Assembly: GCA_965112155.1 (NCBI GenBank)
Contig: OZ218098.1
DNA: 64,000 bases
Reading direction: 5' to 3' (one strand)
Origin: Podarcis liolepis
Lineage: Eukaryota
In this document: piece by piece, positions 2,505 through 34,770 of the stretch
How positions within the stretch are numbered: the first letter of the stretch is position 1
How the letters are laid out: each line of letters starts with the position of its first letter
Notes under the pieces: generated by a model
Databases searched by the model: none
The model's input: only the letters and a program-made list of their open reading frames with translations
What the model was told of the DNA's origin: nothing
Position numbers and translations under genes: made by a program

Positions 2505-2805
2505 ATGGCTCACCCAGATCTAGCGATGGGTAGGAATGAAACCTTAAGCCAAACCCTCTATGATGCCTTGGAAGAACTCCTTGAAGACCAGTTTAACATT
2601 TTTAAACAGAAGCTACAAGACATTGACCATGATGGAAAGGGGAAAATCCCCAAAGTTCAGCTGGACAGTGCTGATAGATCCGATGTTATTCATCTCATGT
2701 GTGACTTCTATGGTGAGGCCAATGCAGTAATAGTATGCATATGTGTCCTTGAGCATATTGGCAAGGAAGACATTGCTGCAAATCTCAAAGAAGCAACACG
2801 GAAAG
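2505..2805 (+). CDS. NLR-A pyrin (PYD) domain exon
   Basis: [20 protein letters not shown]...[29 protein letters not shown]...[14 protein letters not shown] is a PYD pattern. Acceptor at 2436/2437; donor AAAG|gtaag at 2805 (phase 1). In-frame ATGs at 2505 and 2526. Confidence 0.9.
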
Positions 2806-5210
2806 GTAAGAAATCGTAGCATATTGCTGGAGATTCACTTTTTTCTTTTCTTTTCTTGTTCCTGTTAAAGAGGATCTCCAGTAAGCAAATGCATTGGATC
2901 CTGGTGGAACTGCTAACAGGGACTCACCTGAAGAACTCCATTATCAGGCAGGGGTATAAGGACTTGGGCAGCCCTTAAGGTACCTTGGACTCAAGTTGTT
3001 AAGGCCCTTGTAAGTTAATACAAGAAGCTTAAACTTGGCTCAGTATCATATGGGCAGTCAGTGCAAGCTTTTAAGCACTGGACTTACATTCTAGCAGTAG
3101 TCTGTCCCCATGAACAGTGGAGCCACAGCATTTTACATCTCCACATTTGATTGGGATGGGATTATATATGTCTGTGTAGTTCATGTACAGGCTAGAACAG
3201 CTTTTTATATTTACTGATCTTTCTCATTTGAAGACAAGAGATGGAATTCCTAACAAAAAATATTTGGTGCTTTCTCAATACTTCTGCTAGAGCATGTCCT
3301 TTTCTTAGGTTCTAGGTTAACCTACAGAGACTACATAAAGGGCAAATTTCAGTCAATGAAAGTCTATCCTTCCCTTGCTGAAAATCTGCTTCGAAGCTGC
3401 CAGTATTCAAAGCTAACCTTTGATATTGAGAGTCCCAGAAAGCAGAAGGAAGAACATGAAATCATGGCTTTAGGATGGGTATATTTTCGAGACACTTACA
3501 TGGACTATTGTAGCCTTCAATCAGAGCATACCACTGAAAAGCTATTCAATCCTGATAGAAATGGACTGGTTCCACAAATCGTTGTACTGCAGGGAGCTGC
3601 AGGGATCGGGAAAACAACAACAGCAAGAAAAATCATGTTTGACTGGGCCTGTGGAAGACTTTATCAGGCCATGTTTGATTATGTTTTCTACATTAATTGT
3701 GGAGAGATGAACCTCTGTAATGAGGATAGTAGTATTGCAGAAATCATTTTAAAACGGTGGCCCCGACAGGATGAAATTAAGAAGATGCTGGAGAATCCGA
3801 AGAAACTGCTGTTTGTAATTGATGGGTTTGATGAATTAAGATGCCCCCTTCAACCAGACCCCTTTTGTACTGATCCCTGGCAGAAGGGGCCTGTGGAGGT
3901 CCTCCTGGGCAGCTTACTTAAGAAAAAACTCCTTCCTGAATCCTACTTGATAATAACAACGAGACCAACAGCCCTGGGGTATCTCCATGAGTGCTCAGAG
4001 GAATTACGTCGCCATTTCAAGATCCTGGGATTTTCAAAAGAGGACAGAGAGAAATATTTCCACAAATTCTTTGAGAATAAAGACCGAGCAACTCAAGCTT
4101 TCAGTCTTGTAAAACAGAACGAGACCCTCTTCACCATGTGCTCGGTTCCCCTTGTGTGCTGCATCATCTGCATGGTGTTGGTACAACAGATGGAAAACAG
4201 TGAGGATCTTTGGCAAACATCCAACACGCTCTCTGCCATCTATATGCTTTACCTTTCCAGCTTGCTAAAGCTGCACCACAGCAGCTCATCAAAGGAACAT
4301 ATTAGAAAGAACTTGAAAAGTTTGTGTTCTCTGGCTGCAGATGGAATCTGGAAACGAAAAATACTGTTCTGGGAGGAAGAAATCAAAGAGCTCGGCTTAG
4401 ATCAGGAAGACTCCCTCCCCCTCTTTCTGAGCAAGAGTATTTTCAGAAGGAACATCGAATGTGAACATGCCTACAGCTTCATTCACTTAAGCTTCCAGGA
4501 GTTTTTTGCAGCCTTATCTTACTTACTGGAAGAAGGAGAAGGGCTGAGTTCTGAAAATCCTAATCGAGATGTGATCGGATTATTAGAAAGCTACGCAGTT
4601 TCCAGACCTGATTTAGAAGTAACGGTGCGCTTCCTCTTTGGCCTCGTAAATGAAGGAAAGGGAATGAAGGACATGAAAGAGAGATTTGGATGGAAATTTT
4701 CGCCTAAGATTAAAGAAGTCTTATTAGAATGGGTGAAAAACACCACAGAAACAAAGATGGATGTACATGAGAGGCATAAGCACCAATGGCTTGAATGCTT
4801 GTATGAGAACCAAGAGGAAAATTTTGTGGAAAGTGCATTGGATCACGTGACTGAAGTTACCGTACACGGAAGATACCTGACTAAGACGAGAGTGATGGCC
4901 CAGGCATATTGCTTGGAGCACTGCTCTGCTTTGGAGGTCCTTCACGTGGAGGAAATGTTATTTATGAGATATTATGATTTTACCGAAGAAATACTAGAAA
5001 AAGAGGAGGAAGAAGAAGAGGGAAAACTTACTAGTTCAGAACCACGTTCAGACGGGTATGTATGATTGAAATAAGGGATGTTGAGTTTCTCTGCACCTGC
5101 CACTTCCACACACGGGATTTCACCACATGCAGCAACTTTTTGCCCTTTTCTGATATTTTCCAGAGTTTCTGATGAGGACACACATTTGACTTTGAACTCT
5201 CATGAAATTC

Positions 5211-18899: not shown

Positions 18900-19104
18900 T
18901 TTTCGTCGGGATACTTCCTTGTTGCTGAGTGCATTTAAACTTAAACAGAAACCGATGACATACAAAGGGCCGTCTGAACTGTAGAGATTGTATTGGATCT
19001 TAAGACTGAGAAGAAATTGCCCTTTTGTGTTTCAGAGGAAGTAGTGTCCTGGTTTTGTTCGTTTTCTCTTTCATGTTCATAAATGACACCACCGATGCGG
19101 TCAG
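18900..19104 (+). promoter_or_regulatory. Putative immune-type promoter and micro first exon of NLR-B
   Basis: ISRE-like AAACAGAAACC (18943-18953) and TTTTCTCTTTC (19062-19072); ETS/PU.1-like AGAGGAAGT (19034-19042). These are followed by ATGACACCACCGATGCGGTCAG|gtaagc (19083-19104), a strong phase-1 donor in frame with the NACHT exon. Confidence 0.45.
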
Positions 19105-22100
19105 GTAAGCCAGGATCGTTTTGCTTGCAATCCTGTTCAGATTAGTTCAGGTTGCTTAATTGAAATCAGGTGGACTTTGGTGAGTTTTGAAGTAACCAAA
19201 TTGTGAGCAGTATTGCAGTTATTTTGTTAATTTTGGAGTTGCAAAAAAAGGGGGGATTTAAGGTAAAGAACCCCTGGACAGTTAAGTCCAGTCGAATTCG
19301 ACTTTGGGGTGCAGTGCTCATCTTTGCTTTCAGACGGAGGGACTTTACAGGCAACCTGCCATTTGTCTGAAAATGGGAGCATTTGCTGTGATTCAAAATC
19401 TTACTTAATATGATAAGGAAGTTTCTTTGGATTCCAGGAAGTGGATTTTTAAGGACAACCGAAAGGAGGAGTGTTGGAGCAAGACAAGGGTGGTGTCTGA
19501 AGTAGGATATTGTACAGTAGGATTTCGTACAGTGCCGGCCTATGCAGATTGCTTAGAAGTCCTGAGTTCAGTGGGACTTAGTCCCACGTAAATGTGCACA
19601 GGTTTGCAGCTAGTAAACCGCTGTCACAGGTCTTAATTCAAACAGAACTTTTCTCTGTCAAAAATACTTTCTCTGTGAATCAGTTCACATGTTAACATTT
19701 CCCAGCATGGGGAGCTGGTTCTGGAAAGGAACCATGTAAAAAATACGTGAACTCGCCCAGCTTTTGTATCATTTTGCCAAATATATTTCAGAAAGCCTGT
19801 CAAATACACCAAAAGCTTAATTGGTTTTTTTGCAATCCACAATGATGCTTGCTCAGTTTCATTCAGAATTAATAAAGTATGCCTAATGGCAAATAATGTC
19901 TGAATTAGATTACAGGGAGAAATACAGAGAACATATTAGAGAGAAATACCAAAGCCCTGAAAGAAGGCTGGCCAGCCATGGGGTCTATGGGCCTCCCAGT
20001 GAAAAATATGAGCAACTAATTATTGCAAATGGAGATAGACGAGAGACTGAAATACTGCACAGACCATGGAGACATTCTGGGATCATGTCAGAGCAAATGG
20101 TTGCTGTTCCCACCGAGGCCTTGTTTGAGGTTGACAACGATGGACCACAGACTGTGGTGCTCTTGGGAGGGGCTGGGACTGGGAAAACCACCTTGGCCAG
20201 AAAGATCCTGCTAGACTGGGCAGCTGGAAGACTCTTTCCCGGGAGATTTGATTACCTTTTCTACCTCCGTTGTGGGCAACTGAATCTCGTTGAGGGCCAG
20301 GCGGACTTGGCTGACTTGATTTTAAACGGTGACCCTGAGCTTAGAGAGAGAGAAGAGATAATGGAACTCCTAGAAAACCCTGTCAAGCTTCTCTTCATAA
20401 TTGATGGCTTTCATGAACTCACTTGCTCCATCGAACACCAGGAAGACAACCCAAGCGTTGATCCCAGGGAGAAGAAGCCGGTGGGAATCCTCTTGAGTGC
20501 ATTATTTCACAGAGCCCTTCTTCCAGAGGCGTGCCTGCTAATTACTACCAGGCCATCCTCTTTGGAAAGCCTCAGGAATTGCCTGCAGTCTGAACGCTGC
20601 ATGAGACTTTTGGGTTTTTCTGAGGAGGGCAAAGAAGAGTATTTCCTCAAGGTCTTTGGAGATAAAAAATTAGCAACACAGGCTCTTAGTTACGTTAAAG
20701 GTGATGAAGCACTCTTTGCCCTATCCTTTGTCCCCAATTTGTGCTGGGTCGTCTGCACTGTGATGAAACAGCAGCTAGACAGGGGCAAGGAAGATCCAGT
20801 GCCAGTGTCTGAAAAACTCACTGCGGTATATGCACTTTATCTCTCCCGTTTGACTGAGTCTCCCTGCAGTAGCTCAGGGCAGTGGAATCTGAGAGGGCTC
20901 TGCTCACTGGCTGCTGATGGAATCAGGAAAAACAAGACCTTGTTCAAGGCCGAAGAAATCCAGAAGCAAAGTTCAGGTCACTTAGGTTCTCTTCCTCCTG
21001 CTCTTTTTCAGAAAGACCCTGATTCTGAAGGTCTCTATAGGTTCCTCCACCTCAGTGTACAAGAGTTTCTTGCGGCCTTGTTCTATGTTTTGGAAGACAC
21101 GCCCAAAGATCCTGAGACTATGAAGCAAGATCTGGAACTCTCACTGGAAGGATGCGGCAAAGACCCAGGAGATTTGACCTTATTTGCCCAATTCATCTTT
21201 AGCCTATTAAACAGAGAAATAATGGAATACCTGAAAGAACAATTTGGGTGGCAAATTTCACCTGCAATTAAGGCTGACTTGCTGGATTGGTTTAAAACGG
21301 ACACACAGATTAAGTCAGATTATCCAAATTATCGCCCGCTGGAGAGGTTTCACTATTTGTATGCAACCCAAGAAGAGGAATTTGCCCAATGTGCTCTTGA
21401 CCGTTTGACTGAAGTAACTATGGACAGATTGACATTTACTCCCCTGGACCAAGCTGTTCTCTCCTTCTGTGTCCAGAACTGTTTACACCTGGAGGCGCTT
21501 TGCCTGTACGGATGTTTGTTTCTGTCGAAGGAACCTGAGGGAGAAGAACTTCCAAGGCATCTCAGTCATCCATGTCAGTAAGTAGGACCCAAACTCTTAA
21601 CTGTATTACAGATGTAGCTGATTTTTATTCCTCTTCTTTCCTACTTCTCATAATATGCATTACCAAAGACTTCTGCTCTTTGCTTTCTTTTTTTTGTTTT
21701 TTGGCAAATCCTTCTTTCTTCTCCCCTTTATATCTGGATTATGTCTATGCTAAGCTGTAGAGCAGGGGTCCTCTGGATAATAAATAAATAAATAAAACCC
21801 CGCCCATCTGGCTGGGTCTCCGCAGCCACTCTGGGCAGCTCCCAACAGAACATTAAAAACACAACAAAACATTAAAAACTTCCCTAAACAGGGCTGCCTT
21901 CAGGTGTCTTCTAAATGTCAGATAGCTGTTTATTTATTTCCTCAACATCTAATGGGAGGATGTTCCACAGGGCAGGCGCCACCTCTCCCTGGTTCCCTGT
22001 AACCTCACATCTCGCAGTGAGAGAACCACCAGAAGGCCCTCGGAGGAGGACCTCAGGCTGAATGATGGGGGTGGAGACGCTCCTTCACGTATACTCCTTC

Positions 22101-25100
22101 AGGTATACTGAGATGCTCCTTCAGGTCTTGGACTCCAAATCCCATCAGCCCCAGCCAGTATAGTTAACTGTCCTAAGCACCTTGGGAAATGCAGTTTCGT
22201 AAAAGGCCTAGGGCTCTCTGAGGAAGAATGATCACCACACTTACAGACCTAGAACTTCCTACATTTATTGGAAAGAAGTAGCGACAGTTAAACTTCTTTC
22301 AAACCAGTTTAAATTTTGTAGTGCAATCACTAAAACTGCTTTTTTCTCTCCCAAAACAGAAAGGGTAGCGTAACCAATAAGCATATTTTGTCCATTATGC
22401 TCATTTTATATTAGAAAACAGAACATAACGAACTTTTCTACCTTTTTAGGCCAGATCAGAAAACACAGGAGCGTTCAGCAGTTTACCTTCTCTGTCAAGC
22501 ACTGAAAGATCCAAACAACAAAATCAGGAAACTGGAGTAAGTCACAGCTGTTTTCCCTGCCTTCTTACTTGTTTGGCTCTATTGACTCAGACACACTCAG
22601 CTAATGTGTGTCTTATTGAGGTTCAGGTATTTCCAAAGCAGTGCCTGAATGGGTCCCAGGGCAGCCCCACATTGTCAGGGGTTTGCTGAATAACTGGCAA
22701 GTGGAAATGTCTGAGGTCATGAAAGTTTTGGGAGGCTACAGAGGACTCTATATTAGATCTCATCATCAGCTCCTTTCTCTGGCAATATTCACATGATCAA
22801 GTGCGAAACAGATCTGTCGGCAAGATGTATGTTGAGCTTTATGATTCCTGCATTCCATGAGGTGGAACTACACAGATGACCCTTGGGGGGCCCGCAGTGA
22901 TTCTGTGAGAGTTGCACCCAGCCCCTCTTTAGGGAAAGCTTAAATTAATACAGTGATACCTTGGTTCTCGAACTTCCTGCACTCAAACGGAAGCTATGGA
23001 AGCCAAGTCAGATGTTTGGCTTCCGAAAAACATTCGCAAACTTGGAACACTTACTTCCGGGTTTGCAACATTCGGGAGCTTATTTGTTTGGGAGCCAAGC
23101 CGTTTGACAACCAAGGTACCACTCTACAGTGGTAGTGGTACCTACAGTGGTACCTCCATTTACGAACTTAATTTGTCCTGGAAGTCTGTTCTTACACCAA
23201 AAGTGTTCTTAAACCAAGGCGCACTTTCCCTAATGAGGCCTCCCACCGCCAGTGCCCTTCCACTGTTTGGCTTCCATTTGGCTTCCAGTGCAAAGTTTGC
23301 TAGCTGGAACACCTACTTCCAGTTTTGCAGAGTTTGTTCCCCCTGTACTAACAATTAAGTGTTTCAGAGTTTCCTTCACATGTCAGGAGGGACAGGCTTC
23401 TCCATTCTCATGTGCCACAGGCCTCTGGTGGGTGTGAGCAGTGGTCATTCTTTCTCTCCACCTTAGACTTTGGAGGTGGGTGGAGATCATCCCCACAACT
23501 ATACGGAGATCCCATACATTCTCTGGCTCCAAGCTTGGGAGGTCAGCCAGGGATTGCTTTCTTGCTGGGGCACCCTGATTGTGGAGCAGCAAAATTGGCA
23601 AGCTCCCCACTGGCCTTTCCTCCAGAAATCATTAGCAAGGTGCTTCCTTAGCCACTCCAGCACCCAACACACCTTTAATACCACAGGAAGCCATCTACTC
23701 TTTTTGGCTTGGCTAGCAAGACCTGACAAAAATGTTGCTCCTCTTGGCCAGGAGGGGAGGGAAGGCCGTTGGAAAGACCAGGTTGACCCAGGGACAGAGG
23801 AAGGGGGTGAGGTGAGTGCGGGCTGCCCCCGGGTGTCACCACTGAGGGGGGTGACAAAATGCCAGGCATCACTCACTGCGGGGTCTGAGCCACGTGTCTC
23901 TCCGCGCTGCCCAAACGTTCCCCCTCTGCCTCCCCCCAGCTGTAAAGTGGCTGAGTGGGAGGAGGCAGGCAGACCCTGGAGGTCCCGCGGTGCGCCCCAG
24001 GTGTGGCTTCCTCTGCCACTGGGTGGACCAACACACCCCATGTGCCAGGGTAGCTGTTAATGTGAAGGTCCATCTCTCTGTGTTTTCAGTACAGTAGGAG
24101 AGGAGAACCTGTGGGCCCTCTGGATATTGCTGGATTTTAACTCTCATCAGCCCCAGCAAGCCTGACCCCAGGGGTCAGGTATGATGAGAGTTCCTGCCCA
24201 ACAACATCCAAAGGGCCACAGCTTAGCCTCACGTGCAGGACAGAATTAGAAGTCGCTTGTTGCCTAAGCCAGTTATTTACAACTGGGTTCCATTTCCCCA
24301 TATCTGTTGGTCTTTAGCATGCTTCTCAAATGCCTTCCATTTGCCTATGGCAACTTCCCAGAGCATTTCCGTGGATCCCAGAGAAAGAGTTTGCTAATTT
24401 AGTGGGAATATTAAAAGCTGTTGTGCTTTGAACCACCTAGGGAGAAAAAGAAAAGCTCCAGATGCAGAATGTTTTACACACGTTCAGGTGGCCTGTGCGT
24501 AATCAACATCTGCTGCATCATTGAGATGAAAAAGAAGACTCAGCCATGTTTATGAGGGTTTGTCCAAAGGATACCCAGGGAATGAGCTGGCCAATGGAGC
24601 TGTTTCTGTCCCATTTTGCAGGCTTAATGGATGCCAGCTCACAGACAATTGCTGTGCAGATCTTTCCACTGTTCTCTCAACAAGCCAGAAGCTGGTAGAA
24701 CTGGACTTGCAGGCAGCCATTCTGAAGGAATCGGGAGCCAGGCTGCTATGTGAAGGGCTGAGTCATCCCAACTGTATGCTAGAAAAACTGGGGTAAGCTG
24801 AAAAAAAGCTTCTTCTGCCTAAGCATTACCAGTGGAACATAAAGGCATTGAGGGTGCACAACGTCAGTTGTCTTTAGGTGTGCAGAATTACTCAGGGGTT
24901 TTTCTGTTTTAAAAAACAACCACAGCACAATTTCTCCCTCTTGAACAAAAGACTGTTTTGGAGAGATTTCAAAATTTTAAACTAGAACATGAAGCTTAAG
25001 GGCCCACTATCTCTCAGGCGTGTGCTGTCAGTATCTCCCTTTCTTGTGGTCCCTCTTCTGTATCTTGATTCACACTGCATCTGTGTGTATTCCTTCTATA

Positions 25101-28100
25101 TACACACTGTGATGTATAATGTTGGGTATTGTTTGCCATATTCTATAATTCCTGCCATCACAGATCCTAACCTGAATTTCCCAGAACTCCACATACAGAA
25201 AAGTGTGTATATACTGTATGTGTGTGTTTTTAATCAGTTTTAATCTGACTTACTTTTATCTCTTAGTCCAAAGCATCTTTCAACAATAAAGGCACCATTG
25301 TTTGAAAATGGATATTCCTAAGTTCCCCAATGAATTAAATCATAACTATCCTCAGTGAAACCAACGATCACTATACCTAGTTAGGCAAGTGGGCCTAATG
25401 TGATCTGTGCTCCCCAAGGAGTGAAAAGGACACAAGGTTCTCCTGTGCTGGATCACACCTTCTTTTTCATGAGTCTTAGAAGAAGGGTGAGAAGCCACGT
25501 GATGTCATCTCGATCTCAGGCTTTTTCAACCACTCACCTCTTTTTGTACCTTTCAGACTGAGGAACTGTGGCCTGACTTCTGTTTCTGGCAGAGACCTTT
25601 CCACTGTTTTCAGTACCAGTCAGAAGCTGACAGAGCTGGAACTGGGTTGGAATCCTTTACTGGGAGATCAAGGAGTTCAGCTGCTGTGTGAGGGGTTGAA
25701 GCATCCGAACTGCAAGCTGCAGAGCTTGGGGTGAGGAGCACCATGCTGTCCCTTTCAGAGTCAGACTGCCAAAGCCCAGAGCTGGTGGATCAGGTCTAGT
25801 GTTTTTTTTGATAAGCAGGTGGTCTTACCAAGCAGGTGATCCAATTTTTTTAGGCCTTAGCCAGCACTTTAAGATGGACTCAGAAATAACACTGGGGGCC
25901 AAGGTGAATCAGGCAATGGTGGAATCGTAAGCTCAAAACGGCACCAGCTGCAGTTTTAATTTTGCTTTAAAAAATAGTTATTATACTGCTGTATCATAAA
26001 AATATATAATAGTAATTTGCAACAATATAAAACATAAAACCAAACAATAACATCATAGCAAGTTAAAGGCAAAAATTTTAAAAAATATCAGCAGTCCATT
26101 GTGGGGGGATGCACTCTTAATTGTCTGCATAGGCCTGGTGGAATAGAAAAGTTTCCCGCAGGCATTTAAAAGTTGGCACAGAAGTTACATGCTGAATCTT
26201 TATTAGCAGGGTGTTCCATAGGATCGGGCCAGTGACGCTAAAGGCTCAGCTTTTCGTTGTTGTCAAATGAGCCTCACCAACTCGGGGAATGACGAAAGGT
26301 TTCTGAACGTTCCTCAAGGGCAGTCACACACAGATCATCCTGCAGTAGTCTAAACCAGGGTCATGTTTTGTGGTCCTCTCCAACACACACTTAAAGATTG
26401 AATGTTTGAGGCCTCAGAACTTTTTATTTTTAAATTTAGGAAGAGAATCATCATGGCACGAGTTGATGTCTTCTCATGCCATGTGTTTTTCTTTCGTGTT
26501 TTGCACTGCACAACCAACCAAAATTCTGCTCTGAACCTTCCAGAGCAGATTTTGGGGAGGGGACAAAGAGAAATCAGAAGTCTTGCAGATCACCCACTGT
26601 GGTGCTGCAATCCCCAAAGTTTTTTTGTGGGCTCCCCAAGACCCCCCCCCAATTAATTTGTCCATTTAAAAAAAGTGTGCATTTTGCTGTGTTACTATAA
26701 TGGCAAAAAAGTGAACTGCTACCCTCAGACCCAACCTTGATAGCAATTAATTGGTCACAGTTATTGAAAATAGCACACAATAGCTGATAGGAAAGCCTTT
26801 GGGATAGCAAACTTGAGGACTGCAGTCTTCACTGTTCCCACATTTCTACTTTGGCCACACCCACTCTGGCATATGGCATGGGGAGGAGAGAGAGAGAGAG
26901 AGAGAGAGCACTGCAGTGCAAATGGGATGCAGCTTATCTTGGTTGCAGCTTGAAGTATGAAAGAAGCAGAGGCTCAGCAAGTGCCCCCCCCCAAAAAAAG
27001 TAATAACAATTTTGCACACACTATGCAGGTTGGACAGCTGCAATCTCTCAGCTGCCAGTTGTCAGGATCTCATCCCTGTTCTAAGTACCAGCCGGACTCT
27101 GATGAAGCTGAACCTGGAATGTAACAAAGTGGGAGATGCAGGAGTGAAGCTGTTGTCTGAAGGACTGAGACATCCAAACTGCGTACTGCAAACTTTATTG
27201 TAAGTGGGAGCCAAATTCCTTCCGTGTGAAGTCCTTGGACAGCTTACTTTCAAGGAGCCCTGGGTAGATCAGGGGTCCTGCTGGACATCATAGTCTGGTC
27301 TCTTGGTTTCTGTAGAGTTGTAGGATCATTCATGCCTTTATTCTTCTTGATAAAACAAAGGATAACCCACCCTGCCTTCCTGAAAGGGAGGGATGAAAAT
27401 CTGACAATATCGCAAGCACTTATTATTTCCTCTTCCCTGCAAAGCAGAACCAGAGTAAACCAGCAGTCTGTAGGAACAGACCTTCAGACTGGCCTCCATG
27501 TAATTTCCATTGAGGACCTTCTGTTCAGCTACAGTTGCATAAAGGTATTAGGAAATGTTTGATTGACCAGGAAGCTCAGGTGTGCATTCAGTGTCAGGGT
27601 TTTCGACTCCTCTTCTAAACCTCTTGCAATTGCAAAATCCGTGTGTGAACATCCGGCTCACGGGTGTTTCCTCCATCCCATATATAACACCAGGGACGGA
27701 ACTGGCCAGTTTGAAAAGGGAGACTCGGGAGCACATTCCTGCTTCTTCATTTCTAGCCACTGGCAGAATTTAGCACTTTCTGGCAGCAAACGAAAAGCCT
27801 TCCTTTGCAGGTACAGTTTGAACAATCAGGGCTGCACAGGAGGACTCTGTTGACAGCAGGTGACTGACAGGTGGTTGACACCTTAACTATCTTAAAGCAC
27901 AGCCAGGTGGCTCTTTTTCTTAAGTCGTGTTGAAGCTGGTTTGGGAGGAAATGCATCAAAACACAGCCTTTAATAGGATCGCTGCAGCATCGATATGGAT
28001 CGTCGGTTGCAGCTAACTGGACACAGAGTAAATGGGAGCATGTGCCCAGCCTTTGCGGCAGTGAATATCATGTTATAGGTGAGGCCCTGGCTGAAGGGTC

Positions 28101-28756
28101 TCAACCTGAGTTTTACATCAGAACCATCCACAGATCACGGTATACATGCAGCTTAGCTATGGAGGCAGACAGCCTTCCTTTCATCACCCACCAATTATAG
28201 GCTGCATCAGCTGTAAAGTGAAGAAATTCACTGACGTGATCACTGCGATTTAGAGTGGAAGGGCTGTTGTTTCACAACATATCTTCTTAATATCAGAGGG
28301 TGAAATAGAAGGGGCCTGTAGAAGTGAGTGAGCCATGTTTGCACTTGTTGGATCTGTTTGTTTTCTCTTGCAGGCTGGACACAAATGAGCTCAGCCCTGC
28401 CTGTTGTGGGGATTTCAGCTCCATTCTCAGCACCAGCCAGACATTGACAGAACTGGCACTAGAATATAATGGACTGGAAGATGCTGGAGTGAGGCTGCTC
28501 TGTGAGGGGCTGAAGCAGCCCAGCTGCAAGCTGCAAAAACTGAGGTGAGCAGCGGCTGGGATTTGTGCTGTGGAGTTCCACGTATTGCAGAATACAAAGA
28601 AATGTCTGCTCTCAAGGGAAATGAAAAGAGGTGATTCCCTTTTGCACAACTATAGCATCCTTGATCCAGCATATTGGGGAGAGGGTTAATATATTTGCAT
28701 GCAGGAACAAATAGCTGTATACTTTAAAATAGCAGAAAGAATATGAACATAGCCCC

Positions 28757-28820
<64 letters not shown>

Positions 28821-31800
28821 TTGCTTGATAAACATAGCAGAAGAGGAAAGGCGAAGGAATGTAGAGAGAAGAGAGGAATAACCTGAAGGTAAGGAGGAGG
28901 GGAAATGGATCATGACCCAGCACTCCCGAGGGCCTTCAGAGACGCTGCTTGCTCTCTGTGGCTGATCCAGCTGGCTTTGCAGATCTCTCAGCCATTTCTG
29001 TCACTTCTAGGGGGCCACACTTTGTCATGGGCACTGTAGTCTCCCTGCAGGTTTCTCATCATGGATCTGTTGTGCTTACTGACATGCTTGTCTTCTTTCT
29101 CCACCCACCCACAAATGAGGGTGGACCGGCAGAGCCAACCAGTTTTCACCTGCTTGTTGTTCTTGATTTCCTACCCCTCCTAAAACGTCTGGCAGCAGGA
29201 CTGTGGCCATAGGAAGAAGGCAGAGTTGCTCTGAGAGCCTTTGCATCACATACAGAGTGGGATTTGTACAGACAAACCCAGCACACGTGGCACAAGGTGA
29301 TCTGCATGAAAACCTGAAGGGAATTTAGGTTTTCTGAGCAGAGCTGATTGCTGCTGCACTTGCCTTGGGGCAGGGAAGGGCCCTAGCTCTATGTCGAAGG
29401 GAGGGAACTATCCTTGCTGAACTACAAGCCCCACCATCCTTGCCGTGTTTGCTGGGCCTGATGGGAGTTGTAGTTCAGCAGCATCTAGAGAGCCAACGGT
29501 TCATCACCCTTGGTGTAAGCTGCCATCCCCTTGCACCAGGTGGGTCCCATGTACCTCTGCACTATTCAGCAGCACAGGAATGAAGGTAGAGTCAGATAGT
29601 TGAAAAAGACTCAGAGGTGAGTGTTGGCTCTTAGGAACATGAAAGATAAACTTTCTCATGCATTTGGAAGGACAGGCCTGGAAACATGAAATAGACAACA
29701 AAGTCTGGTCAGTTTTAATTGACTATTGAGACCACACAGAGGAGTGTGAATAGGAGCAGGCTGTGTGCTTGTGAGTGAACCAAAACCACATACACAAACC
29801 AAAATCCTTCCTCAGAGTGCCTGCACAGCTGCAATGTTACTTTGAGTCCTTCAAGACTCCTTCATCCTGACAGTGGCTAGGAATAAAGGCTTCAGGGTCT
29901 TCTAGCAAGCAGAAGCTGTTTGTGGAGGAAAACGTGAACGGGAGAGGTTTTTCTTTCATCTTTTCTTTCTCACACAGGCTGGTCCGATGTAATATTACAG
30001 CTGCGTCTTGTGAAGATCTCTCTTCTGCTCTCGCAGTCAGACAGACTCTGACAGAGCTGGTGGTGGAATGTAACGAGCTTCGAGATCCAGGGGTGAAGCT
30101 TCTGTGCAGAGGTCTGAAGCATCCGCACTGCAAGCTGCAGCTCCTCAAGCAAGTAATCGGCTGGATCCCTCTGGGGTTGGATAGCATCTTTGGAGCCCAG
30201 GTTGCCCCCCCCATGAGAGTGAAGGGACCCTAGAAATGCTGCACCCCAAGCAGGAGCCAGACCGACCCTTTTGTACAGTCAAGCCTGTTGAGGCATCACT
30301 TGTTTCTGTTCAGAATCACAGTATTCCAAGATCCCTTCCTAATTTTTGATTTCTTCACCTTAACTATTCATAGGCTATTAACAGGTTGTCCCTCACCCCC
30401 ACCCCAACCAAAAAAATTGGTTTACATTTCCTGCCATCAAGTGCTGAGAGCAGAGGTCAGCAACCTTTTTCAGCTGTGGGCCAGTCCACCGTTCCTCAGA
30501 CCATGTGGTGGGCCAGACTATATTTTGGAAGGGGAAAAAAGAACAAATTCCTATCCCCCACAAACAACCCAGAGATGCATTTTAAATATAAGGACACATT
30601 CTACTCATGTAAAAATATGCTGATTCTCGGACCATCTGCGGGCTGGATTGAGAAGGTGATTGGGCCACATCCGGCCCCTGGGCCTTAGGTTGCCTACCCC
30701 TGACTGAGAGTGTCACTACACATCTTCTCTGCCTGAGTTTCAGAGTGAGAAGTTTCTGCACCTCCAGGAAACTCTTTGAGGAACATAGAAGCCCATTTTT
30801 GCTCATTGAATGGGTTCAGTAGCAGCTACTGTCAGCTGAGGCATGACCAAGAAAGCCCTTGTCATCCAGTTTGTTACATAGGGGCTGCAGGATAATTGCT
30901 GCAGGTGACAGGAATTGTTTGTATTTGAAGAAAGTTGCGAGGTGATCTGAAGAAACAGGAGAAGGGTCTTTACACTTCAAGCCATCCCCTTAAAACCCTG
31001 TTCTTCCATGCCCTGCCGGAATCCAGTTGTGCAGAGTGATGGAGGAAAGCAGAGGGATGGAGGAAAGCAGAGGGACTCTTCTAGCTTTTGTGTGAACATA
31101 ACACAGCCAATGCTTTTTTTCTCCTGCAGCTTGTACAATTGTGATCTCACCGCTGCCTGCTGTGCAGATCTTGCCTCTGTCCTCAGCAGCAACCAGACGC
31201 TGACCGAACTCTTCCTGGGAGGTAACCAGCTTGGGGATTCCGGGGTGCAGCTGCTGTGTGAGGGACTGAAACATCCAAAGTGCACGTTGCAGAAATTGTG
31301 GTAAGGGAGAACTCTGTTCCTTCGGGTTCAGATCATGAGCACAGTGCTTGTGGGTCCGGAATTATGTTCTGTTGCATTTGAGGAATCTACCGTATTTTTC
31401 GCTCTATAAGAGGCACTTTTTTCCTCATAAAAAGTAAGGGGAAATGTGTGTGTGTCTTATGGAGTGAATGCAGGCTCTGCAGCTATCCCAGAAGCCAGAA
31501 CAGTGAGAGGGATTGCTGTGCAGCGCTCCCTCTCGCTGTTCTAGCTTCTGGCTTAGCCGTGCGAAGCCTCTTCAGAGCAGGCGGAGCATTCATTTCACTG
31601 CCCTGAAGAGGCTTCGTGCGGCTATCCCAGAAGCCAGAACAGCGAGAGGGATCACTGTGCAGTGCTCCCTCTTGCTGTTTTAGCTTCTGGGATTCAGAAT
31701 ATTTTTTTTCTTGTTTTCCTTCTCCAAAAACTAGGTGCATCTCATGGTCTGGTGCGTCTTATAGTGCGAAAAATACGGTAGTTTTCATGGGGAAAATCCC

Positions 31801-34770
31801 TCCTTATCCATCCATCCATCCATCCATCCATCCATCCATCCATCCATTCATACCTCTCTCTCTCTTGTTTTCATTTTTATAGTCTTTATATGTGCACTTT
31901 CCTAATCGCAAAAGTACACATGCCCTAGCCAAAGGAGGCCCTTCCCCACTCCAGGCTAATTTCTCCTGTGTTTTCCATCCCTCTAAGTGGACTTTAGCTC
32001 TTCCCTTGCCCACCCCATTCCTCCCCTCCCATCTCCAATCTACGGTCCATCCCACCACAATGATACATGGAGGCATTCAACACAGCGCTGTGGAAATCAC
32101 ATTTCAGATTCCCAGATGGACTGATCCCCTTCTTCTTCCTCCACGTCCTGCTCTGGGGGCTCTCTTAACTTCTCCTTGAGCCAATTTGGGGTGGGGGTGT
32201 TGCAGAGGGAGTGCCAGGCGAGGAGAGAGGAGAAAGGCACATTGCACTAGCAGGACTTCTTCTTTAAAAGCTGCCCAGTATCTCCTGCCCTTTTGGTGTC
32301 CTTTCCTAAGGAAACTCCCTCCACTCACCCAATTCAGTCATGGCGGTCTCACCATAAACCACAGGGGCTCCCTCTTCTACCCCTCCTGAAACCCATGGTC
32401 ACACAAGGTGCACTTGTGTCCTGCAGCTTGTGTAGCACTGAAATCACAGCAGCAGGTTGGGGAGAGATCTGTTCTGCCCTCAGCACAAACCAGATGCTGG
32501 AACACATTGATTTATGGAACAATCCATTGGGAGATTCAGGAATGAGGCTGCTGTGTGAGGCACTGAAACACCCAGGCTGCAAGCTTCAGATTTTGTCGTA
32601 AGTAAGAAATCTTCCTATCTACACAGTTTTTTTATCTGTTTTAATCTGTTTTTGAATAATTCAGTTTTTCCTATCTACACAGTTTTTTTATCTGTTTTAA
32701 TCTTTTTTTGAATAATTCACTTTTTCAAGAACAAAAATATTGTCAGGAAATGAGATGCTTAACAGAAGGTAACAGTGAGAAGAACATGGAAATATGATGA
32801 AGCTTTTCCTTCCAACAAAGAGTGAGGGCTAGTAACTTTTCTCTTTACAACCCCCCGAAACCCCAACAAAGCCTGAAAGCTGAAATTCTCAATAGGTAGC
32901 TTTTCATAGCAAATTCTGTTCTATGAACAAATGTAACAGCACTGAAACACAATAAGGAAAGTACAATGAATTTGACTAGTTAAGAAATTTGGATCACTGT
33001 GAGTATAGGCAGCTCTCAGTGTGTGACCACGGATGCCCACACCACTTTCAGACCTGGAAGAGGGTGTAACGGGGGGGCTCATGCGCACTCCACCAACAAC
33101 GGTGACGCGCATGAAGATGTGGAATGCAACCCTGGCACAAATTGGGGGTTGCCTGTAATATATCAAGAGTTCTTCCAAACTGTTGCCACCCTCATACTTT
33201 GTGGAGTTGTAGTTACAAGTAAGGAACAAGTCAGCAGGCCCTCCCATCCTAGCTGTTTGGGTTTTTTTTCAGGTTATGGAATTGTGAATTCACCTCGGCT
33301 TCCTGCAGGGATCTCTGCTCTGCTCTCAGCACCAACCAGAGTCTGAAGAAGCTGGAGCTGGGGGGTAACAAACTGGGAGATTCCGGAGTGAAGATGCTCT
33401 GTGAAGGACTGAAAGACCCAAGCTGTGGACTGGAGGAAATTGAGTAAGTTGCAGGCAGCTTCCTTGATGTGCAACGTTCATTTGAGGAGCTGTGTGGTTG
33501 CCTAAGATAGGCTCTCCAGGGGCAGAGATGCCCCTGACTTTTAAAGTGGAAAGTTAAGAAAACAAGGCAGGAGAAGAACCGAGGGAGCCAGTGTGACAAT
33601 CAAACCGTGAGTCGAACCGGGCAGGGGGACATCAAGGGACAAGGGGAAATTGCCTAATCAAGAGTGGCATTTGTGAAAGAAGTCGAGAACAGGAGCATGC
33701 TTACCTGTGGAGGTCTGAGTCACTGTTGGCGGATTGTTCCCAGGAACATATTAGTACATAGAGAATGGAATGTATAGTATTGTTCTTAGTATAATGATTA
33801 AAGCCGATGGATTATGAATGGGGAGCCTGTGGCCCTCCAGGTATGTTTGGACTCCCATTGGCTCTGTTGGCTGATGGGATTTGGAGTCCAGCCACAGGTT
33901 CCTGCTCCATGCTGTAGAAGGTCCTTTTCATGAGAATCGCAGGCTTTGAACTAGACCCGTTTACTTGATATAATCAAATACGTCTGTTACTTAAGCACTA
34001 AAAACACGTCTCGGGCTTTTGCATCTAAGCACTACCACTGAACCCTGGGTCTCTGCTCCTTACTTAGAGATACCTCCTTCACCGAGTTTTTTCAACCCTG
34101 ACTTGTTCTGATAAGCACCAAGGAGTCCTATAGAATTCCAGTGAGCATAAGTGTGATTGCATGCATAGGCAATTTAGCTGTTTAAATAAGGAAGGAAATG
34201 AATGAAGAATAAAGCCCAGTGGAAGCTTAAATGGCTGTAAGGAGCCTGATAAGGCCCATTAGTCATCTCTGTACTTTTGACTTTCTCTCCATGTAATTGG
34301 GTTGGGGGGTGGGGAGTGTACACAGTACATCAGGGGGCTAAAAAGATTTGCCATTTTAGCAAATACCTGTGAAAGTGGTGTGCTAGAATAGAATAGTATG
34401 TCTTAAGAAACCATTCTTAGCAACCTCAGCAGGTTTAAATGTCACAATTTCTGTCCTGCAGAACCTTCCCTAGAAACTAATTCCAGGGGACGAGAGGAGT
34501 TCCTCCCCCAGGAAATGTTCAGCACCACCATGCAAACTTGCATATTAAAGTGGGAAGCAGGGACCTCAAAACTGCCTTTAAAAAAAAAAATCACTTAAGT
34601 TTTGTAGTGTGTATAAGTTGTGCATGGTCTTTGTTGCCATTTATAGGAGGCAACAGAATGTTTCTTTCTCTTCCATTCACAGACTCGATATTGACGAGTT
34701 ATCTGAAGACACAGTGAGAGAGCTTAGTAGCGTGAAAAGGATTAAGCCTGACCTGGTTATAGGCACATAG
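19083..34770 (+). CDS. NLR-B: NLRP6-like NACHT-LRR receptor lacking a pyrin domain, ~1075-1078 aa
   Basis: Start is either micro-exon 19083-19104 spliced to 19909, or ATG 19896. NACHT exon runs to 21577, then 22450-22536, 24622-24792, 25557-25730, 27029-27199, 28374-28544, 29978-30148 (GC donor), 31130-31300, 32427-32597, 33273-33443, 34683-34770 (TAG). From ATG 19896 the sum is 3228 nt = 1076 codons. Segments [28 protein letters not shown] and C-terminal [22 protein letters not shown] resemble mammalian NLRP6 as I recall it. Symbol withheld because orthology is untested. Confidence 0.88.
19258..19343 (-). mobile_element. Sauria-SINE-like 3' end fragment
   Basis: aaggtaaagaacccctggacagttaagtccagtc...gctcatct is the reverse of the (ACCTTT)-ending squamate SINE as I recall it. 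Confidence 0.55.
19896..21577 (+). CDS. NLR-B FISNA/NACHT exon
   Basis: 561-aa ORF: [10 protein letters not shown] (FISNA start), Walker [10 protein letters not shown], Walker [28 protein letters not shown]. Donor CA|gtaagt at 21577. Confidence 0.93.
21780..22130 (-). mobile_element. L2-like LINE 3' fragment
   Basis: Short AT-rich repeat followed by cccgcccatctggctggg...ccactctgggc...gggaggatgttccacagggc; related stub at ~12555-12630. Confidence 0.55.
22951..23330. mobile_element. Adjacent/nested CAGTG(G/A)TACC MITE remnants
   Basis: TA|CAGTGATACCTTGGTT ... AACCAAGGTACCACT, then repeated CAGTGGTACC termini and an internal sequence like the 16896 MITE. Confidence 0.65.
28760..28815. repeat. 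(TA)n microsatellite
   Basis: Direct reading. Confidence 0.95.
30451..30702. mobile_element. hAT-type MITE
   Basis: Termini CAGAGGTCAGCAACC / GGTTGCCTACCCCTG; 8-bp flanks GCTGAGAG / ACTGAGAG (7/8 match). Confidence 0.7.
31390..31778. mobile_element. Tc2/pogo-like MITE, family 2
   Basis: TIRs CCGTATTTTTCGCTCTATAAGA / TCTTATAGTGCGAAAAATACGG with TA flanks; internal inverted copies of gctatcccagaagccagaacag. Confidence 0.85.
31807..31848. repeat. (CCAT)n microsatellite
   Basis: Direct reading. Confidence 0.9.

Follow-up and report, generated by a model that had tools for sequence, protein, structure and literature searches.

Gene B, the downstream member of a tandem pair of NLR genes in a 64,000 nt stretch of Podarcis liolepis DNA (contig OZ218098.1 of assembly GCA_965112155.1; hereafter the window), carries a histidine where its neighbour, NLR-A, has the second aspartate of the extended Walker B motif, at a site aligned with D305 of human NLRP3 (or D303 by the shorter count). 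This His is real, fixed in the B genes of lacertid lizards and otherwise rare. B also encodes no PYD, and the tree of B and its relatives shows an order of events in which the PYD was lost at the root of a lizard clade and the Asp was replaced later, by Glu, Asn or His according to lineage. The His is likely to have been tolerated via a nucleotide switch that has loosened since the PYD was lost in the B lineage. An earlier, sequence-only reading of the window had proposed that the two traits are coupled, an idea that is partly supported.

The Walker B histidine and the gene that carries it

Positions 20400-20420 translate as IDGFHEL, with CAT (His) at 20412-20414, and the corresponding motif of the upstream paralogue NLR-A (3821-3838) is DGFDEL, both as reported in the sequence-only reading. 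In an alignment to solved human NLRP3 chains (human numbering taken from chain 8SWF +126), His176 of B (P0001 numbering) pairs with D305, in agreement with the position assigned earlier, and Lys100, Arg222 and His388 pair with K232, R351 and H522, respectively. The equivalents of K232, T233, D302, E306, R351, P412 and H522 are all retained. All features of B and of NLR-A lie on the plus strand. The extended Walker B of B (20403..20420) keeps its first Asp (D302) and its Glu (E306) with the His codon (20412..20414) between them, and the Walker A (20166..20189; G231, K232 and T233 equivalents), the sensor-1 Arg (R351; 20550..20561) and the WHD His (H522; 21048..21059) are intact, as had been claimed. 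The last two stretches also include Ser at A354, which is an exact activating CAPS residue, and Val at the F525 hotspot. Gly is found at the R262 hotspot (20274..20276), as it is in the PYD-bearing NLR-A, and Lys at the T438 hotspot (20814..20816). Hence, B has the signature of an active STAND/NACHT ATPase, namely a Walker A GK[T/S], the first Walker B Asp, the sensor-1 Arg and the WHD His (for the Walker and NACHT motifs, see PMC7583971), and departs from the extended Walker B motif DGxDE, as defined in PMC9633759, in that His replaces the second of the two acidic residues.

B consists of 12 coding exons (19083 to 34770) with an open frame of 1078 aa, and the predicted protein is 92–96 % identical to four lacertid database models. 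Exon ends are AG/GT throughout, apart from one GC donor (30149-30150) in an LRR intron. The first coding exon (19083..19104), located from the N-termini of lacertid models, is 22 nt long, encodes a leader of 7 residues and ends in a GT donor, and it stands where a PYD exon is expected; it agrees with the leaders of the database models of P. raffonei, P. muralis and Zootoca, and the frame stays open. The 5′ splice and the expression of B are inferred here from database gene models rather than reads; six sequencing runs guessed to be RNA share 0.34–0.45 of the words of the window, and none of them is on record as RNA. An in-frame Met at 19896 was considered as the sole start and rejected, as both starts occur among the database models and most include the leader exon. 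The NACHT exon (19909..21577; AG/GT ends) comprises a degenerate FISNA, NBD, HD1, WHD and HD2 (Pfam NACHT, NOD2_WH and NLRC4_HD2), and the ten remaining coding exons (22450..34770) are a transition exon, eight LRR exons of 171/174 nt and a last exon with the stop. An AlphaFold model of the NACHT (pLDDT 77, pTM 0.81) has the fold of the NLRP3 NACHT and is closer to closed NLRP3 (TM 0.70) than to the active disc (0.50), though, because it is ligand-free, it is uninformative on the resting state.

Pfam identifies NACHT, winged helix, HD2 and LRRs in B, and no PYRIN. The possibility of a cryptic PYD exon was rejected: tblastn and phmmer recover only the PYD of NLR-A in the window, and a genome-wide PYRIN search gave 37 matches, of which only two are on this chromosome (that of NLR-A and one 180 kb away), with none between A and B. 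The absence of a PYD noted earlier is thus confirmed. B has the architecture of the NLRP family in that a NACHT with winged helix and HD2 is followed by 171 nt LRR exons, and it is not filed here as NLRP3 or as an NLRP proper because the N-terminal PYD is missing. About 30 of the PYRIN matches are clustered at 16.34–16.82 Mb of C14, where there is no NACHT match, and represent a large family of PYD proteins of another type.

Assemblies of two sequencing runs, X1 (organism A, possibly the source sample) and X13 (organism G), span the codon at 20412-20414, and neither has an alternative base or the GAT of an Asp codon, at the level of contigs rather than raw reads; runs X3 and X14 have no coverage there. 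DGFHEL is present in 14 of the 14 B-type lacertid records listed, from five species in three genera (Podarcis lilfordi, P. raffonei, P. muralis, Zootoca vivipara and Lacerta agilis), and an assembly error is ruled out because all of these records have the His. The 14 come from the 18 listed members, of 20, of the lacertid cluster, and the other four are A-type with Asp. Organism G has Ser in place of the Walker B Gly at 20406, beside the His; the corresponding human NLRP3 variant, G303S, is given as not activating in PMC11876074. That Ser, together with a high crude dN/dS of 0.73 (17 non-synonymous and 7 synonymous differences between organism G and the window in the NACHT exon), is what might be expected if B were decaying. 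However, the frame is open and splice signals are present in all 12 exons, full-length orthologues extend from geckos to iguanians, and the binding residues are fixed, in addition to the 14 concordant lacertid records. Decay, and likewise an assembly error or a private variant, is contradicted and barely credible.

Elsewhere, His at this site is scarce. It is found at 1 of 12 readable NACHT loci of the same genome, namely B itself, in 4 of the 278 motifs from 279 homologues listed (three proteins yielded no motif), and in none of 216 NACHT stretches of 150 distant representatives, a set with 31 instances of Glu. Where a PYD lies upstream, 220 of 223 motifs keep Asp, a count that includes many isoforms and close kin. 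Two of the NACHT loci of this genome (L010 and L011 on C13), which we take to be NOD1-like, have near-identical NACHT exons 6 kb apart and are a recent or an assembly duplicate.

The A-B locus and the PYD-less lizard clade

The PYD exon of NLR-A is at 2505..2816 (Pfam PYRIN, E 1e-15), and the open frame with its NACHT exon, including DGFDEL, is at 3254..5065. In NLR-A itself, the R262 hotspot is Gly, W416 is replaced by Cys and E629 by Gln. The order A then B recurs across lacertids, in an amphisbaenian and in an iguanian, as seen in fused models from Podarcis, Rhineura and Phrynosoma (P0261, P0125 and P0127, respectively). Like a paired sensor, B lacks an effector domain and has a conserved linkage to an effector-bearing NLR.

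The upstream neighbour resembles a glycoside hydrolase family 65 gene (L014:3100-5378 and L015:2110-2442, minus strand; an Atlas lead of very high confidence), and Pfam found no match in its single exons. It is presumably PGGHG, which adjoins NLRP6 in humans. An NLRP6-like gene (L002) lies 170–180 kb downstream. Within the span of the family 65 gene, at L015:8159 to about L014:2300, lies an LTR retroelement whose open frames are long and which looks Gypsy-like by eye. An LRR-exon-like frame, possibly an NLR relic, is found just before the window and upstream of the PYD exon of NLR-A (L014:9580-9876); it has no Pfam match. The NLRP3 locus block is ZNF496-OR2B11-TRIM58, reportedly absent in reptiles (bioRxiv 10.64898/2026.04.26.720791).

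In a quick IQ-TREE phylogeny of 53 rows, with SH-aLRT supports only, the 19 rows of B orthologues group together in one clade that spans the lizards (SH-aLRT 100). Geckos branch first, then a cordylid and skinks, and then an anguid with iguanians and an amphisbaenian with lacertids, a branching that resembles the species tree of squamates. The clade is sister to the squamate A-type genes in a tree built without NLRP3 (NLRP3 was used as the root in a separate reconstruction), and B descends from PYD-bearing genes. None of the 13 stand-alone B-type clusters includes a PYRIN family, and in most the NACHT exon is preceded by a short leader. Six B-type proteins were rescanned individually for domains, and FISNA gave no match in five and a sub-threshold match in that of Elgaria, though the region is still alignable. 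Full-length B orthologues are found from geckos to iguanians.

The 19 B-clade rows have Asp in eight (geckos, cordylid and skinks), Glu in four (Elgaria, Anolis, Sceloporus and Phrynosoma), Asn in one (Rhineura) and His in six (lacertids). As the Asp, Glu and Asn rows all sit within the PYD-less clade, the loss of the PYD predates the His by most of squamate history. The suggestion that the His is coupled to PYD loss does not hold as it stood, in that 8 of the 19 PYD-less orthologues keep Asp and a further 4 have Glu. Between Podarcis species, the branch sums are similar (approximately 0.047 for B and 0.045 for A), and B is no faster, which counts against a loosened switch in B. No snake B-clade protein is among the matches listed, whereas snake A-type proteins are, and B was possibly lost in snakes. 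One protein (P0046, Lerista) has an A-type NACHT preceded by a short leader without a PYD, and Ile at F525, and may represent a second loss of the PYD.

Human disease residues and change in the NACHT switch

The D303H substitution was said in the sequence-only reading to have been reported as a CAPS allele, and this is so. It is described as constitutively active and MCC950-resistant in human cells (PMC10966137), and D305H, N, G and A are all listed as 'strongly active' in Supplementary Table 1 of PMC11876074. The identical residues, His and Asn, occupy the aligned position in the B clade. The proposal that B has lower ATP hydrolysis is plausible by analogy, as Table 1 of PMC9633759 gives the turnover of D305A as 0.18 of wild type. 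Slow hydrolysis need not mean activation, because the double mutant D305A/E306A makes no specks in the same study.

An activating set of 110 missense variants at 62 NACHT positions was assembled from 123 of the 159 'strongly active' entries in the supplement of PMC11876074, excluding three PYD variants, two deletions, I174T, duplicates and entries past position 634. Each of the 53 rows carries between 5 and 11 exact activating residues, with 8 in window B (D305H and A354S among them), 7 in window A and 6 in human NLRP12. A single exact CAPS match is therefore ordinary, disease residues being routine in distant paralogues, and the His alone has less weight than had been given to it. Moreover, B is approximately 36 % identical to human NLRP3 in the NACHT, lacks the PYD and apparently lies at another locus, and the non-eutherian NLRPs are all placed outside the NLRP3 clade in bioRxiv 10.64898/2026.04.26.720791. 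Because B is probably no orthologue of NLRP3 and 5–11 exact activating residues occur in all of the paralogues, a 'pre-activated' state, the other option originally put forward, is not readable from one residue.

Compensated pathogenic deviations are cases where another species has, as its wild type, a residue that causes disease in humans. B differs in that the carrier is a distant paralogue, where matches are routine (5–11 per protein); we found no paper that treats NLRP3 in these terms.

The rate of change was compared over the 127 columns conserved in 16 non-squamate rows, using parsimony counts with two long-branch rows omitted. The B clade has 159 changes on a tree length of 3.05 and the PYD-bearing squamate sister clade 106 on 3.31 (p 1e-4), such that B alters conserved NACHT columns approximately 1.6 times faster. 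There are zero changes across the B clade at G231, K232, D302, E306, R351, P412 and H522, and all 19 B rows retain T233. The clade-wide loosening of the switch residues and the order of events together fit a permissive link between PYD loss and the His. Site 305 was considered as a special hotspot in B and rejected: three of its four changes fall in the clade, on 30 % of the tree length (p 0.08), and three is in keeping with the general rate of B (p 0.34).

At the 18 activating columns, B has 34 changes and the sister clade 16 (Fisher p 0.26, permutation p 0.07 and 0.21). Enrichment at activating sites over all domains is not significant (permutation p 0.07–0.39; Fisher p 0.40 in a separate reconstruction), and window B alone departs at 8 of 18 activating and 24 of 109 other columns (p 0.07). 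The 15 activating columns of NBD-HD1-WHD have 28 changes in B versus 4 in the sister clade at the 90 % threshold (Fisher p 0.002, permutation p 0.004 and 0.008), for a subset picked after the data were seen and with p 0.02–0.10 at the 80 % and 100 % thresholds. Perhaps, then, the activating sites in B change faster still than the background.

By domain logic, an open conformation of B, having no PYD, would be unable to seed ASC, and because of this, selection would be weaker on the residues responsible for closing the switch and for ATP hydrolysis. The His would be one among many tolerated changes and not a dedicated adaptation. B would still bind nucleotide and, by analogy with NLRP3 biochemistry, hydrolyse it more slowly. 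Its target would be the PYD-bearing neighbour A, damped or scaffolded via NACHT/LRR contacts, which is the weakest part of this proposal. We see an even chance that B, which is an intact PYD-less lizard receptor of the NLRP type, still binds nucleotide, hydrolyses ATP slowly and acts as a non-nucleating modulator or scaffold, not as a stand-alone inflammasome. The constancy of the His in five species and three genera goes beyond what pure relaxation requires, and the residue may now be under selection. The 28 versus 4 changes at activating NBD-HD1-WHD positions could likewise reflect directed change rather than drift.

Effector-less receptors with altered nucleotide-switch motifs stand beside effector-bearing ones in NAIP-NLRC4 and in plant sensor/helper NLR pairs. 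A B that acts as a NAIP-like, pre-opened sensor or nucleator and activates the PYD-bearing A, with the activating-site changes including the His selected for a lower threshold, would account for the A-then-B order kept in the Podarcis, Rhineura and Phrynosoma models, for B rows that, at sites of deep conservation, match activating residues exactly (D305H/N, A354S/T/V, T438N, F525L and F304L) and for the NBD-HD1-WHD excess (permutation p 0.004 and 0.008). Against this, that subset is post hoc (p 0.07–0.39 over all domains and 0.02–0.10 at the other thresholds), tandem placement is also expected from local duplication, and snakes keep A-type genes with no B-type protein among the matches listed. 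B also has no BIR or integrated sensing domain, and no activation by a ligand or partner is known for it. We consider this arrangement unlikely. It is similarly improbable that lizards have paired NLRs in which a PYD-less, pre-opened B that gained CAPS-type residues stepwise (T438, F525 and Y565 early, D305 and A354 later, and R262 and N402 in lacertids) triggers or gates A. If this were so, B would display a graded set of gain-of-function states tolerated in nature and, together with canid NLRP12, would open a route to suppressors of D305H.

Canid NLRP12 and the tolerance of the histidine

The same DGFHEL motif was found in NLRP12 of canids, in 15 of the 15 records listed from a cluster of 42 members and in a further dingo record (P0231, P0263-P0276 and P0114; dog, dingo, jackal, fox and raccoon dog, in Canis, Vulpes and Nyctereutes). 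The canid proteins keep PYRIN and FISNA, and the NLRP12 of fur seal, mink and grey seal has Asp at the site. Over the 127 conserved columns, dog and raccoon dog NLRP12 depart only at E263K, D305H and T350I, and fur seal nowhere, compared with 32 departures in window B. The canid His is of independent origin from that of lizard B, on the evidence of the tree. As canid NLRP12 fixes His with a PYD, loss of the PYD is not the sole route to it. PYD-bearing NLRPs with His had been named as a finding that would count against the coupling idea if common; they exist, in all 15 canid records listed, and are confined to one lineage rather than common. Human NLRP12 D294E was considered as a parallel of the Glu state and rejected, as the primer given in PMC3112487 corresponds to the first Walker B Asp (D302 equivalent).

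On the strictest form of coupling, B is constitutively active owing to the His, and the absence of a PYD is the sole reason why this is tolerated. D305H is a strongly active allele of human NLRP3, the His arose after the loss of the PYD in the tree, and Asp is kept in almost all motifs with a PYD upstream (220 of 223, with many isoforms and close kin), all of which speak for this form. However, the residue is acidic in 12 of 19 PYD-less rows, the PYD-bearing A itself matches 7 activating residues exactly and has Gly at R262, and canid NLRP12 combines His with a PYD of a type that, in mouse NLRP12, is able to activate caspase-1 (PMC11284034). The mouse protein resists auto-activation in the same report, and the role of NLRP12 is disputed (PMC12575685); for these reasons the canid counter-example is real but not airtight. 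The 'only because' form of coupling is largely refuted, and we regard it as very unlikely.

Another possibility is that the His is compensated in cis, so that switching and hydrolysis by B are normal and the residue is functionally neutral. The neighbouring A354, in packing contact with D303/D305 (PMC10966137), is Ser, Thr or Val in 7 of the 11 B rows without Asp and in none of the 8 with Asp, though because rows share ancestry these are not seven events. Canid NLRP12 altered T350 and E263 along with the His, and every paralogue tolerates 5–11 exact activating residues. On the other hand, Lacerta and Zootoca pair the His with Ala354, and, in human NLRP3, these changes at A354 are activating in their own right (PMC11876074). 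Compensation is therefore possible but doubtful, and a switch loosened since PYD loss remains the preferred explanation.

Songbirds and lungfish have NLRP3-like proteins that lack a PYD (PMC11258412), and these share with B an NLRP-type NACHT-LRR without that domain. However, in songbirds a long novel region replaces the PYD and birds are without ASC, whereas lizard B has a 7-residue leader and an adjoining PYD-bearing paralogue. In the literature searched, in which subscription journals are thinly covered, no description was found of the PYD-less clade of lizards, of the His within it or of that in canids, though the supplementary tables and nucleotide-motif heat maps of bioRxiv 10.64898/2026.04.26.720791 may already list gene B. 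A PYD-less NLRP-type clade that extends from geckos to lacertids beside a PYD-bearing paralogue is thus apparently undescribed. It supplies four natural states (Asp, Glu, Asn and His) of a residue that is debated in NLR hydrolysis and reset, and dog NLRP12, with the His, a PYD and only two other departures nearby, offers an inexpensive mammalian system in which to test how a CINCA-grade change comes to be tolerated.
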